Shown: positions 6,242-31,735 of the stretch, piece after piece
Layout of the letters: each line of letters opens with the position of its first letter
Position numbering within the stretch: position 1 is the first letter of the stretch
NCBI GenBank assembly: GCA_964016885.1
Contig: OZ024756.1
Location: forward strand, 7,068,001-7,132,000
Source: Eledone cirrhosa
Taxonomy: Eukaryota
Reading direction: 5' to 3'
Length of the DNA stretch: 64,000 nt
Position numbers and translations under genes: made by a program
The notes under the pieces: generated by a model
Told to the model about the DNA's origin: nothing
Database searches by the model: none
What the model saw: only the letters and a program-made list of their open reading frames with translations

Positions 6242-6471
6242 AGAGATTACAATAATCAAAGTTCAGTTTAAATCATTTATTTGCTTACAATTGTTTCCTC
6301 CAAACCGAGGTTTGAATTCTTCGGAGCAACTATTTAGTGATCTATAACATAGGAGGTCAAGTATGTTATAGATCACTAAATAGTTGCTCCGAAGAATCCA
6401 AACCTCGGTTTGGAGGAAACAATTGTAAGCAAATAAATGATTTAAACTGAACTTTGATTATTGTAATCTCT
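6242..6471 (+). mobile_element. Fold-back mini-element (~110 bp arms) containing a hammerhead-like motif
   Basis: Near-perfect inverted repeat with apex ~6351-6362. The right arm has TTGCT-CCGAAGA-[tccaaacc tc ggtttgga]-GAAAC-AATT-GTA-AGCAA at 6384-6432. Confidence 0.75.
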
Positions 6472-6525
6472 CTCTCTCTATATATATATATATATGTAGA
6501 TAAATCTACCAAAATATACGGTAAT

Positions 6526-6659
6526 ATTATTTCTGAAGACAGCATATATATATGTGAAGGTATGTATATTTCCTCTGATAGTTTGTAAAATGTTTACATA
6601 GATCTATATGATATACATACCAACACACATATATACCCTAGAAACGATAGTAAAATGAT
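6526..6659 (+). ncRNA. Candidate type-I hammerhead ribozyme with long stem II
   Basis: ATTATTT-CTGAAGA ... ~100 nt ... GAAAC-GATA-GTA-AAATGAT. Stem I is 7 bp with one G-U. The same 3' half (GAAAC GATC GTA AAAT) recurs at ~31793 (+) and ~19660 (-). Confidence 0.65.
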
Positions 6660-6746
6660 GATTTTTTTAATATAAGGAACTTGTTCTTTGTTTTTATTCA
6701 TTGTTTTTATTAATTTATATATATATATATATATACATATATATAT

Positions 6747-6944
6747 AACGAAGGAATTGTGGTAACGAACCAGATGGACCATAACGCACCAGAGTACTCA
6801 ATACTTAGGGTAGTAGAGTGGGAAATAGGAAAACGTATGACCCCGATGGCTCAGCTCAAGCCGTTTCGACGGCTATTTCTAGACTAAAAAAAAAAAAACC
6901 GTCGAAACGGCTTGAGCTCTGCCGTCAGAGTCATACTGTTTCCT
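6747..6944 (-). mobile_element. Asymmetric fold-back mini-element, same family as 26967-27351 and 27419-27610
   Basis: Shared aacgaaggaa...ccataacgcacc...gtactcaatacttagggtagtagagtggg extension and inverted cgtttcgacgg/ccgtcgaaacgg arms; flanked by (TA)n. Confidence 0.8.
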
Positions 6945-7075
6945 ATATATATATATATATATATATATATATATATATATATATATATATATATATGGCC
7001 GACCGAACTAGAAACCGCCTTCTTGTCACTCTGCCTTTTCATTCCCATGGATTATATTCCTTTGTTATATTTCGA

Positions 7076-7133
7076 ATACCTGATGATGTCACCGTATTCA
7101 TACTGAACCCGTTCATTGAAATGATGATAGTAT
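7076..7133 (+). ncRNA. Candidate type-I hammerhead ribozyme
   Basis: ATAC-CTGATGA-...-GAAA-T-GATG-A-TA-GTAT. Intact core and 4-bp stem I; stem II is poorly defined. Confidence 0.55.
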
Positions 7134-7517
7134 AATAAACATTTAAAGAATTACACCAGTCCAGCCTCCTGTTATTTTATAATAATTAACGCCATACTCG
7201 CACCAACACCACAATCGTCGTGTGTTCTCACTAATATTACATCGTGGTTGACCATACGGAATGACCAGTTCTTTTTGTCTGACCTGTTTAGCTTGACTTG
7301 TTTTTTTGGCTTAGGTGGTTAATGGCTTCTTGACCTCCTTCTCAGTTTGTATGGCCTTTATAACCTATGTTTATTGCTCTGGTCTTTCTAGCCCATGGAG
7401 CTCTTGCCAGCATGATTCGGAATTTGCGTTATGTCTCGCTTTTTCGACCCGCCGAAATGCGATTCTCACTGAAAAAATATTTATATATATATATATATAT
7501 ATATATATATATATATA

Positions 7518-7702
7518 TACAAACATAAATTATAGAGATTCGCGTTTCGGCCCACGAAATAACGAAAAACAACCTCCGAGATGTGAGGCAAGAGCTCAAT
7601 GATTCAGATGAACCAGAGCTACAACATACGTAAAGGCCAAACACACTGAGACGATGGTTAAACAATCATTCGCATAGCCAAAAAACAAACGATCAAGTAA
7701 TT
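7518..7702. repeat. Interspersed repeat, second copy at ~13546-13730
   Basis: acaaacataaatta..gagattc..tttcggcccacgaaataacgaaaa..aacctccgagatgtg..gctcaatgattcagatgaaccagagcta... occurs at both sites. Confidence 0.85.
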
Positions 7703-8182
7703 CGGGTATTGAAAAATTTACCCGGACCCCTGGAAGGTTGGTAAAATCCAGTATTTATATATATATATATATATATATATATATATATATATATATATAG
7801 GAAAAGAGTCAGGACCCCGTCGGCTGAGCTCCGGTCGTTTCGACAGCAAGATCGGAACGAGTTCGGATCTTGCTGTCAAATATAGGAGGCCATCTTCAGT
7901 TGATTTAGGTTGACTTATATCTCCATGATACATATCTTGTCCGCAAATCCCTAATCGGCTAGCCACATATTATATATATATATATATATATATATATATA
8001 TATATATATATATATATATGTATAAATATGTGTCTGTGTGTGTATGTATCTGTATGTGTGTGTGAGTGTGTTTGTGTGTGTGTGTGTGGTAAGTATTTTC
8101 GAAGAAAAAGCAAAGGAAAAAAGAGTGCTCTATGTATAAAGCAGAGCTATTTAATTAGAAAGTAAACAACACAATATAACTA

Positions 8183-28630: not shown

Positions 28631-28636
28631 TATATA

Positions 28637-28868
28637 ATAATACAAGGACGATTTGTTAAGCTTTCATTTCGTTTACTGATTTGTGACGCGCGTTTCGTTA
28701 TTGATCATCTCAAGGTTCGATCTGTGTCGATTTGGGCCGACTCTAGAATCGAAAACTCGGGTTTGGATTCCTGAGTCGGGCCAGATCGAACCTTGAGCTG
28801 ATCAATAGCGAAACGCGCGTAACCAATCAATAAACGTAATGAACACGTAACAAATCGTCCTTGTATTA
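28637..28868 (+). mobile_element. Diverged fold-back mini-element with hammerhead 3' half
   Basis: tacaaggacgatttgtta...taacaaatcgtccttgta inverted arms; right arm GC-GAAAC-GCGC-GTA (palindromic ACGCGCGT). Confidence 0.65.
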
Positions 28869-30319
28869 TATATATATATATATATATATATATATATATA
28901 TATATATATATATATATATATATATATATATGTATATATATACAGCCGTATGTGGTTGATGGCTGAGAGAAAAGATTACTCAATGCCGAGGTAGAATTTT
29001 AATATTCATTTTATTAAGGCCAAATATAGGTTTCTTATATAGGCACAAGGCCAGCAATTTTTTTTTTTTGGGGGGGGGGGGGGGTTCGATTAAATCGACC
29101 CTAGTGCATTACTGGTACTTTGTTTTATCGACCCCGTAAGTATGAAAGGCAAAGTTAAACGCGGCAGGATTTGAACTCAGATTATAATTCAAATTCCGCC
29201 GAGAGAGAGAGAGAGCAAGAGAGAGAGAGATGTATTTTGAGACGGACTTCTGCAGTTTTCGTTTACGAAATTACATCCACATGATATTGGTCAAAATGAG
29301 GCTATAGAAGACATAATTAACTTCCCCATCTCCACAAATTGGTAGCCCTGTGTCCACACTGGACATCATTACATTTAGTTTAAGTTTATTTTGACAAGTA
29401 ATAAAACACTTCAATATATCTAGGGAGAAGTATTGTGAAGATGGAATTTTCTGGGGGTCACAAAAATATTCCTTATTCCTCGTACGTGACTTCAGCTCAC
29501 TGTGAGTGAACCTATAAATATATATTTCACGTATTATTCGTTCTTGCCATTTGCTGTAGTTTATGACCACCTCGTAAGAGTAAAAATTGTTTATATTACG
29601 AAGCAAGGGATCTGCATTCTGTGTAAAGTATAACAAAAGGCAATGTGAAATCTATCCCAGAACACTTGCTAAAATATTTTCCCACTAATTCATGGTTTGT
29701 TATTTTTGTCGTCGATAGAGTAAAGGTCATGAATTCTTGAAGGGAACAGTCTGTTTCCTGCTGTCATTATCCTGGAAACCTAATAGCGATTCCTTACCAG
29801 AAGAAGGTCATCGCACCAGGTAAGTATTTTACAACTATTAGATACGTTGTCATAATACTTTTTGTTTATTTTCCCACTCCGAGTAATTTTTTAACTCTCT
29901 GTTGTCATAGGTGGGCTCCCTAAGTTGTCCTTTCTTACTAAATCGTCTAGAATTTCAAACTACCACATTTCTCACCAATAGACAGCGGTACTTTTGTTAT
30001 TCTTAAAGAATCTGGTAGAGCTATGGAAACAAATTGTTTTATTTTGTGTATATACATCTATTAGTATCAGTATACTTATACGAGAATGTATTTGTGAAAG
30101 CAAATGCACGTGTATATGTTTAACTGATAGTCGATTTATATTTATAGTGTGTGTGTGAGTACGAATGTTATTAGTCGCAATATTATATACAATTATTGTC
30201 GAGTGTTTTAACACAGGTTGGAAATGTCTGTATTTCTGGGTATGTTTGTTCATTAATATGAACACCAGGCTGTAAATATATAGCCTATCTATGTATTGCA
30301 ATGTTATATGTAAATTGGA

Positions 30320-30630
30320 GAGAATCATGCTTAACATCACCTTATGTGACAGACAGAGGAACACCTGGATATGACAATAGATTGGAGTGAAGGACATGGT
30401 TGAAAGCATCAAGAAGGGCAAACAAAGACGGGGTCGCCATGGTTCTCATTTCAGAGACAACAGCTGGACAATTAAAATGGCAGAGTGGACACCAAGGCAG
30501 TGAAGAAGAACTAGCGCACGGCCAATACGACGATCTGACTCGATACCTCAGCCCTCACATGGCCCAATGTTGCCAGAGATAGGAAGCGATAGAGAGCAAT
30601 AAATGAGGAGTTTCTCCAACAGGTGTGAGA
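30320..30630 (+). pseudogene. Old RTE-type LINE C-terminal fragment
   Basis: RNTWI..GVKDMVESIKKGK..GRH..RDNSWT..AEWTPR..R..ARP matches the RTE C-terminal pattern (WAGH..R..DNRWT..W.PR..R..GRP); stops present. Confidence 0.65.
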
Positions 30631-30775
30631 AGGCTCTGGATTGAGATTTAATTTGGTTTTGTGGATATTTAAACTGTCTCAATGTCAAATATGTGTGACT
30701 TTCAATTTGTCGAACACAGGAAAGAGACTCGGCTACAATCAATTCTGATAGAGAATATTGAATCATATCTCAACT

Positions 30776-30890
30776 ATATACACTATATACACTATACATA
30801 CTATATACACTATATACACTATACATACTATATACACTATATACACTACACACTATATACACTACACACTATATACACTACACACTATAC
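30776..30890. repeat. 9-bp-based tandem repeat (tacactata)n
   Basis: Direct reading of the sequence. Confidence 0.85.
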
Positions 30891-31170
30891 TCACGATACA
30901 CACTTTCATTTGTTACAGTGTTGAAATGATAGTGTAACTAATATGGGTTCCATGTTGGGATTCAGTTCTATTTGCAACAGAATTTAATTCTCATTGCAGT
31001 ACAGACAGGTAATACATTTTCCTATTTAAGAGATATGACGTGTGTATATGTATGCTTATATGTGTATGTATGTATGTATGTATGTATGTATGTGTGTGTG
31101 TGTGTGTGTGTGTGTGTGTGTGTGTGTGTGTATTTATATATATATATATATATATATATATATATATATA

Positions 31171-31533
31171 TACGATATTAACAAATGGAAACTATATTTA
31201 TAAAACCATATCTATTCTATTATACATATTTCAAGGATACCATGTTAAATTATGGTATGCTTTCATCAGACAAAATACAATATATACCAGTTTTATAAAT
31301 AAATATTGACATACCCATTATAAAACTTGTATATATTGTATTTTGTCTGATGAAAGCATACCATAATTTAACATGGTATCCTTGAAATATGTATAATAGA
31401 ATAGATATGGTTTTATAAATATGGTTTCAATTTGTTAATATCGTATATTTACTCCAAATACTTGTCGAGTGCTTTATATCAGTTATAAAAATATTTGCTT
31501 GTTGTATCCCAACAATTTAAATAGAACTTTTGC
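31171..31533 (+). mobile_element. Asymmetric fold-back mini-element with intact hammerhead (31349-31403)
   Basis: Arms ~31171-31298 and 31318-31446, extension to 31533. TATTTTGT-CTGATGA-aag c ATACCAT..ATGGTAT c ctt-GAAA-TATGTA-TA-ATAGAATA. Confidence 0.8.
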
Positions 31534-31557
31534 ATATATATATATATATATATATAT

Positions 31558-31735
31558 ATAGATGAGATTCTACAGGACTAGAACTGTTTCATTCATTAGA
31601 AATTGATGATTTCTAATGAATGAAACAGTTCTAGTCCTGTAGAATCTCATCTATATTAAAACTGTTATACTCTGCTATGTATTGAGTACCTTACTTACTG
31701 TGGTTACCTCCGATTCAACCCGGAATAACGTACTA
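31558..31735 (+). mobile_element. Fold-back mini-element, family of 20538-20726
   Basis: Perfect arms gatgagattctacaggactagaactgtttcattcattagaaat / atttctaatgaatgaaacagttctagtcctgtagaatctcatc. The apex falls in TGATGA. Confidence 0.8.

Follow-up and report, generated by a model that had tools for sequence, protein, structure and literature searches.

Short palindromes in TA repeats of Eledone cirrhosa as probable twin-primed insertions of Penelope-like element ends

Results

Nine short palindromes in a TA-repeat-rich window

We analyzed a stretch of 64,000 nucleotides from Eledone cirrhosa (assembly GCA_964016885.1, contig OZ024756.1, positions 7,068,001 to 7,132,000 of the forward strand; hereafter the window) that is rich in TA repeats and holds nine short palindromes. 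In its SINEs (short interspersed nuclear elements) and other repeats it appears similar to an octopus genome. Each of these is probably an insertion in its own right of the ends of a Penelope-like element (PLE) into a TA repeat, in which both target strands primed reverse transcription (twin priming), synthesis often ran off at the capped start of the element RNA, and the two complementary DNAs (cDNAs) were joined head to head. Judged from their sequence, the palindromes are pairs of PLE pseudo-long terminal repeats (pLTRs) that do not derive from the 4-kb PLE copy of the window, and five of their families connect to ORFs (open reading frames) of Hydra-type PLEs.

All nine palindromes listed in an earlier note on this DNA were located again, and alignment paired every arm set (44–127 bp, 82–100% identity; Table 1). 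Positions are window coordinates, elements are called by the start positions used in that note, and positions within an element are relative to an A named +1, which was defined from the data. The one-sided extension of ~80–90 bp that had been claimed for seven elements (hereafter the tail, carried by the tail arm and missing from the short or inverted arm) measures 80–90 bp by alignment in 7 of the 9. Of the remaining two, 28637 is symmetric and has no tail, and 6242 is only partly symmetric, its family B tail having been cut down to 29 bp by the 5'-truncated end of a long interspersed nuclear element (LINE). The groupings proposed for 6747, 26967 and 27419 and for 20538 and 31558 are correct, and six families can be distinguished: A (6747, 26967, 27419), B (6242), C (14604), D (20538, 31558), E (28637) and F (31171). 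Location within (TA)n likewise holds in general, except that 20538 has (GA)n at its left edge. Elements 26967 and 27419 occupy one TA tract, and in 27419 and 31171 the extra sequence sits on the short arm. Detection of inverted repeats was swamped by the TA tracts.

Table 1. Palindromic elements and related features of the window, in window coordinates
Name	Feature	Position	Strand	Arms	Tail	Remarks
6242	Family B, head to head	6213..6471	.	6242-6351 and 6362-6471	remnant 6213-6241	minimal hammerhead core in each arm
6747	Family A	6747..6943	-		81 bp, at left	tail arm to +1 of inferred start; short arm from ~+13; A-run at junction; 3' half of hammerhead only
	Truncated tenth element, A-related subfamily	7800..7880	.			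20-bp hairpin; absent from the earlier note
14604	Family C	14604..14840	+	short arm 14604-14676	87 bp	tail arm from inferred +1 A (14680), preceded by G
	Longer family C arm	16092..16400	-			passes the wall upstream; displays initiator-like context
20538	Family D, older subfamily	20532..20727	+		82 bp	apex a few nt from inferred start
26967	Family A	26967..27350	-		86 bp	both arms beyond the wall (~-75, ~-125); whole hammerhead in both; spacer in tail-arm orientation
27419	Family A	27419..27609	+		80 bp	short arm to +1; tail arm from a few nt later; 3' half of hammerhead only
28637	Family E	28637..28866	.			short ends on both sides; other family E copies have a tail
31171	Family F	31172..31534	+	127 bp, 98% identity	90 bp	19-bp spacer, family sequence in short-arm orientation
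31558	Family D	31560..31733	+	44 bp, 100% identity	81 bp	apex ~+7 and ~+12
4-kb PLE	5'-truncated PLE of another type (family G)	43396..47466	+	inverted arm 43396-44092, 697 bp, 99% identity	47 bp, 47420-47466	body from ~44094; open frame 44099-46891; hammerhead-like core at 47174, mirrored at 43641; spacer in tail-arm orientation

Five palindrome families connect to PLE coding sequence

Exact pattern searches of the 3.0-Gb genome returned 26,582 matches for the family A tail, 9,237 for the family D tail, 2,179 for family B, 1,080 for E and 769 for F. Reversed-pattern controls gave 0 matches, against 342 to 26,582 for the real patterns, so the matches are not due to chance. The search for longer copies reaching PLE coding sequence that the earlier note had suggested connected families A, B, C, D and F to open reading frames (ORFs) with a reverse transcriptase (RT) and, at the C terminus, a GIY-YIG endonuclease, assigned by tblastn and by motifs read by eye. 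Long family A copies pass through a 1.3-kb 3' untranslated region (UTR) into the ORF, and at 342 places the family A tail runs on into a 5' UTR and ORF start. Tandem arrays of family A (3.5 kb) and inverted long copies also occur, so that the pLTR is present in direct and inverted form. Pairs of families B, C, D and F lie beside homologous ORF pieces or on either side of them, the pieces being 34–59% identical to the family A ORF, in 9 of 16 stretches (L306–L309, L313, L315–L318), L306 and L307 providing the link for family B. For family E, one pair flanks a family G-like ORF, perhaps nested, and another pair has no ORF.

The family A ORF has RWR in place of RWK, DKT, a CxCX5C linker, CxxC and CxH near the C terminus, and no CCHH; such Hydra-type motifs were read in L142, L141 and L313, L142 being without the third linker cysteine. 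These motifs and the (TA)n targets are shared with the Hydra clade of PLEs, which the available portions of its description (PMC8557442) base on 23 proteins, mostly cnidarian, unlike the tens of thousands of copies found here. Pfam returned no family for the family A ORF or for the endonuclease part of family G. A third PLE type is represented by broken ORFs in both orientations near 17.70 Mb of another contig (L035 on C3).

Junctions and pairing of the two ends

Arm ends of family A were scored in the first 93 of 100 listed tail matches, in order of position, on one contig (C1). An adjacent inverted arm was present in 72 of the 93, and in 70 of these 72 its outer end lay at most 3 nt from one site (exceptions L053 and L103). 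Both outer-end sites carry short TA-type microhomology. The junction between the arms was distinct in 65 of the 72 two-armed copies and alike in 4, in agreement with the earlier view that the palindromes are independent insertions. A fixed apex, first suggested by a best-hit DNA search, was dropped, as each junction differs and best hits are biased.

Among 65 loci chosen independently of the tail, the two outer ends paired long with short in 59, short with short in 6 and long with long in none. This set covers five families (B 3, C 13, E 12, F 6, the rest A; 2 further C pairs were omitted), and the pairing script miscalls a few loci; family A scored by eye gave 26/26 long–short. Either arm can be the complete one, and both arms of a copy share subfamily variants (by eye), each subfamily having long ORF-type members. 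Both target ends are thus joined to ends on the RNA 3' side and the inner ends are independent, the arrangement expected of twin priming.

Miniature inverted-repeat transposable elements (MITEs) have inverted ends that are symmetric and fixed and enclose one internal sequence. The palindromes resemble them in having inverted ends, but their long–short ends and varied junctions lack both the symmetry and the fixed interior, and the earlier note was right to set them apart from MITEs. Non-autonomous palindromic masters with a fixed apex that are copied whole, either MITE-like or like a hairpin short interspersed nuclear element (SINE), would account for the very high copy number, the narrow sizes, the few repeated junctions and the repeated 3-nt inserts mentioned below. 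We nevertheless consider such masters very improbable in view of the distinct junctions, the asymmetric ends with either arm complete, the long ORF-type members of each subfamily, and the subfamily variants common to both arms of a copy. Fold-back chimeras of the assembly or library have next to no probability: palindromes within TA tracts are difficult to sequence, but the fixed, family-specific ends and tails, the 0–18% divergence between arms, and like joints with C or G between them in contigs from three public runs of one sample, possibly the sample that was assembled, all speak against them. These contigs leave the junction of 31171 uncovered, a gap that carries no weight either way.

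The earlier note left open whether an early-stopped cDNA had folded back or re-primed, and here the second half of its proposal fared better. Fold-back would have a single tail-primed cDNA stall, fold and copy itself, later central deletions blurring the apex. Overlaps of 1–4 nt and short palindromes at many junctions, some perfect hairpins (as in L057), and the tail-arm orientation of the spacer in 26967 and in the 4-kb copy fit this idea, and self-priming on an antisense template has been proposed for rotifer PLEs (PMC3846280, available text). However, fold-back works only if all of the inverted arm is also present in the tail arm, and it fails because the inverted arm often holds sequence that the tail arm lacks: the inverted arm reached at least 10 nt further in 13 of the 72 copies and the tail arm in 3. 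The script had given 16 and 5; inspection by eye removed five copies, of which three had internal deletions, one had two tails and one was an alignment overlap. In L078, L105 and L123 the two arms have no sequence in common, and in L121 a 600-bp inverted arm faces an 84-bp tail arm. Unless all non-overlapping copies are later deletions they contradict fold-back, which also leaves the single fixed stop of back-copying described in the next section unexplained. We therefore judge it distinctly unlikely.

Arm ends pile up at a putative transcription start

Although junctions differ from copy to copy, the inner ends are far from random. In family A, the inner end falls between -6 and +8 for 52 of 93 tail arms and for 53 of 72 inverted arms; only 8 and 1, respectively, extend further upstream. 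We call this site the wall; it was seen in at least 4 subfamilies. In family D an arm end at +1 to +7 was found in 13 of 30 copies, with 10 of 30 running far upstream (by eye). An early stop of synthesis, as supposed in the earlier note, is not supported in the sense of a random stop, since the ends pile up at an initiator-like site. In families A, C and D the wall fits the initiator consensus YYANWYY, and a TATA-like box lies upstream of +1 at 29–31 bp in A (23 contexts) and 30–33 bp in D (8 contexts); contexts overlap between loci. In contigs from the same three public runs, depth drops about tenfold at the wall. We infer that the wall is a transcription start and hence the capped 5' end of the RNA. 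Since both arms of 26967 run past the wall, this element was likely copied from a 3' pLTR.

At ~27.01 Mb of contig C1 (L324/L325) the 5' leader forms a direct repeat, in which one copy begins at the wall and is attached to a second, slightly inside the ORF start of the latter, which begins at the wall as well; the arrangement resembles a template jump at the 5' end of the RNA. The wall as a splice acceptor was dropped, there being no upstream exon sequence beyond the wall and both arms retaining the A.

An extra G at the wall

The base beyond +1 was counted by hand from listings. Where it was not the templated T, the base before +1 in family C was G in 58, C in 23 and A in 19 of the first 100 of 2,919 matches. 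At 30 loci of this family, 2 of the C's belonged to long variant copies, and several G's and most A's were possibly templated by the partner. In the first 50 of 301 elements with both arms complete, 50 of 100 arms had the cap-type base next after +1, while 30 had the templated base, 11 the fourth base and 9 the mirror base; against the strand-symmetric mirror control (50 vs 9) the excess has P = 5e-8. The extra base was present on both arms in 23 elements, on one arm in 4 and on neither in 23 (P = 2e-8), in a set that retains two apparent duplicate pairs and contains repeated 3-nt inserts. In family A the base before +1 was G in 88 and A in 12 of the first 100 of 3,644 matches. The window element 14604 also carries the extra G. 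Capped full-length L1 insertions are marked by such an extra G (PMC11702581, in the part available), and in the palindromes it was presumably copied from the cap.

For fold-back, extra bases on both arms a single nucleotide apart would be too tight for a hairpin loop. Twin priming in which the wall is a stall of RT at an RNA structure (hammerhead stems or a bound protein) and the G is untemplated would suit the position of the wall, which in A, C and D is within the hammerhead or a short way ahead of it, the long copies that get past it, and the G that is not uncommon at nearby stops in family A. Yet the place of the wall relative to the ribozyme varies: in A it is inside loop II, in C and D it precedes the core, and in E and F it is far upstream. 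What A and D have in common there is an initiator-like A and, 30 bp upstream of it, a TATA-like box. The extra base, moreover, comes directly after +1 and is coupled between arms; an RT stall is unlikely.

Hammerhead motifs

The pLTRs contain type I hammerhead core motifs (motif scan and inspection by eye), which we treat as predicted ribozymes; an Rfam scan ranked by E-value gave, in the 150 of 336 rows inspected, no hammerhead and only sub-threshold microRNA (miRNA)-like matches driven by TA repeats. The hammerhead that the earlier note placed in sense on the longer arm is there, but the other arm holds hammerhead sequence too, each directed to the outer end on its strand (31347+/31269- and 47174+/43641-). 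Such opposite-strand pairs are already published, and a U3-A8 type core as in family A has been noted (both in the available part of PMC4209133). Short family A copies are without the 5' half of the core. Because most arms continue through the predicted cleavage site, the RNA templates would have been largely uncleaved; the cleavage site as the cause of the wall was rejected on the same observation. The inferred start of family A lies inside the hammerhead, leaving the 5' leader without the 5' half of the core and the 3' pLTR with the whole ribozyme, predicted cleavage of which would remove the 3' priming sites.

The 4-kb PLE

The 4-kb PLE had been taken as the full-length model whose plan the palindromes copy. 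An inverted arm and a tail are indeed common to both, but this copy is neither full length, lacking at least ~220 bp of upstream ORF present in another copy, nor of the same family as any of the nine palindromes. Its ORF shows by eye a CX2-5CxxC linker and a CCHH motif in the endonuclease, a Neptune/Nematis-type pattern, and Pfam gave only a sub-threshold RT match; RT and GIY-YIG assignments throughout rest on motifs read by eye. A tail on the body side is not part of a shared plan either, as long copies carry the tail on either the body or the inverted arm, often the latter (L136, L139, L141, L142, L032). In three relatives of family G (L057, L129, L225) the apices cluster ~45 nt upstream of a hammerhead-like core, possibly another start-site wall, although the cases are too few.

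Other repeats in the window

Single-armed pLTR pieces with hammerheads lie beside TA tracts at 19374 (a further family), 20034 and 21429, the set including a B-like copy and an F-like copy with tail. Elements are inserted side by side within single TA tracts at 26917-27663 and 31135-31765; one such adjacent pair creates a false palindrome spanning the tract, which Rfam scores as miRNA-like below threshold. A 114-bp inverted pair (33864-33977 and 35271-35384, ~1.3 kb apart, each by (TA)n) possibly marks the ends of another PLE insertion. A SINE-like repeat is abundant (15672-15853, 18334-18843, 25148-25297, 28519-28631, 29022-29187 and others), and a palindrome at 18592-18774 consists of two such copies in opposite orientation. 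A LINE RT frame at 4674-6224 (-) is 5'-truncated, its 5' end adjoining and cutting the tail of 6242. Another LINE, with apurinic/apyrimidinic (AP) endonuclease and RT frames, occupies 48144-51313 (-) and looks young, with long TA-rich tracts on its flanks. A 29-bp satellite (365 copies, 94% matches) fills 53448-64000 and continues past the end of the window.

Discussion

How the palindromes may form

In the twin-priming scheme that we favor, the endonuclease would open (TA)n on both strands, and the element RNA would be reverse-transcribed from each of the cut 3' ends, with one start at the tail end and the other ~80–90 nt upstream. The 5' leader, ahead of the ORF, contains both start sites as well. 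Two short cDNAs primed in the leader would end by run-off at the capped mRNA start, ~60 and ~140 nt long in family A, and would then be linked 3' end to 3' end by end joining. The long copies, which are rarer and variably truncated, would stem from priming in the 3' pLTR. Run-off at the cap would explain both the extra G and the clustering of apices at an initiator-like site. We infer that one RNA served both primers and that end-joining repair linked the cDNAs. Tail arms often stop inside the tail, in families C and D as well, and the G is coupled between arms; both facts suggest that the tail-primed cDNA displaced or collided with the other on a single RNA.

More speculatively, synthesis that moved from the run-off end across to the 3' pLTR would restore the promoter-bearing pLTR. 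Minus-strand strong-stop DNA of LTR retroelements is primed near the RNA 5' end, runs off at the cap and needs a jump to the 3' repeat. Here, unlike there, synthesis would be target-primed on both strands with no transfer RNA primer or integrase, and run-off products would be inserted. Transposition of Hydra-type PLEs might be an obligate reaction with two primers on one RNA, in which a dimer uses two fixed leader sites, one for each target strand, the resulting cDNAs are strong-stop-like and run off the cap, a full copy with its upstream promoter arises only if synthesis jumps from there to the 3' pLTR, and the hairpins are failed jumps from which the transcription start of each family can be read to the base; we offer this tentatively and lean somewhat against it.

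Several observations weigh against twin priming with run-off at a cap, or narrow its reach. Exact-match patterns favor young copies, and our samples are the first listed matches on one contig. The start itself is a putative one, placed from DNA sequence. Four of the nine window elements (6242, 26967, 28637, 31171) have no arm end at the wall; family B consists mostly of long copies without a wall; and families E and F have a wall and no clear TATA box at -30 (by eye). Among 30 ORF-linked 5' pLTRs, 4 begin at the wall (one of them through the direct jump of L324/L325), 18 extend upstream and 8 start inside. In family A, 10 of 23 G's at 30 loci could derive from the partner arm, and G also occurs at 18 of 53 stops from +2 to +7, against 10 of 12 at +1. 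When both family A arms are complete (first 50 of 2,788), the cap-type base is found in only 18 of 100 arms, and most of the 100 extend 1–4 nt upstream of +1; the scheme needs a second start near -4 for these, which the sequences suggest. Different master copies, instead of one RNA, might lie behind the coupling of the G between arms, and later central deletions could have produced part of the arm asymmetry. Finally, in vitro the Poseidon element PAc of the anole primes at sites without target homology (PMC11167929), whereas short microhomology is present here.

Comparison with known systems

Much of the architecture is familiar. Inverted pLTRs, one-sided tails, TA targeting and junction palindromes have already been described for PLEs, and self-priming or resolution by the endonuclease proposed for them, in the available portions of PMC3846280, PMC8557442 and PMC2377424. 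As far as these extend, endonuclease-bearing (EN+) PLEs share with our elements a head-to-head, inverted, 5'-truncated copy, a tail confined to one end, copies in tandem or partial tandem, (TA)n targets and a hammerhead in the pLTR; they differ in that tails are 30–40 bp there, against 80–95 bp in the short families here, and in that the bulk of copies here are ~200-bp pairs without an ORF. The origin of PLE inverted repeats, one-sided tails and pLTRs has been named unsolved (PMC11167929; PMC8557442 and PMC2377424 in the portions available).

PAc nicks and extends both target strands in vitro, with two RT start sites that bound the tail at the pLTR–ORF junction, dispensable ribozyme cleavage and a predicted dimer (PMC11167929). 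In contrast to our elements, whose two ends nearly always use different sites, that work reported no start-site difference between strands and did not treat inverted products. L1 twin priming (PMC11702581, available part) is alike in that the second target strand primes internally, end joining closes the inversion junction and capped 5' ends bear an extra G. In L1, however, the second site is variable and the cDNAs barely overlap, while here the site is fixed and a palindrome results because both cDNAs usually copy the same stretch. Non-LTR retrozymes, in the accessible part of their description (10.64898/2026.07.22.740005), are likewise short, ORF-less, high-copy PLE relatives bearing hammerheads, but they are direct tandem units with a whole hammerhead, unlike the head-to-head pairs and half-cores of short family A copies. 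In the open-access main texts available, we found no PLE for which an extra G, a wall at the start site or long–short pairing of the ends is described. The architecture is thus known and the mechanistic evidence new.

The junctions of tens of thousands of short products discriminate between models of PLE insertion, speak against self-priming and favor run-off at a capped 5' end. They also tie the two start sites and two extended strands seen in vitro to the inverted structure found in vivo. Hairpins of ~200 bp such as these risk being misfiled as MITEs or miRNA precursors, and in a 3-Gb animal genome Hydra-type PLEs can belong to the most abundant repeats.

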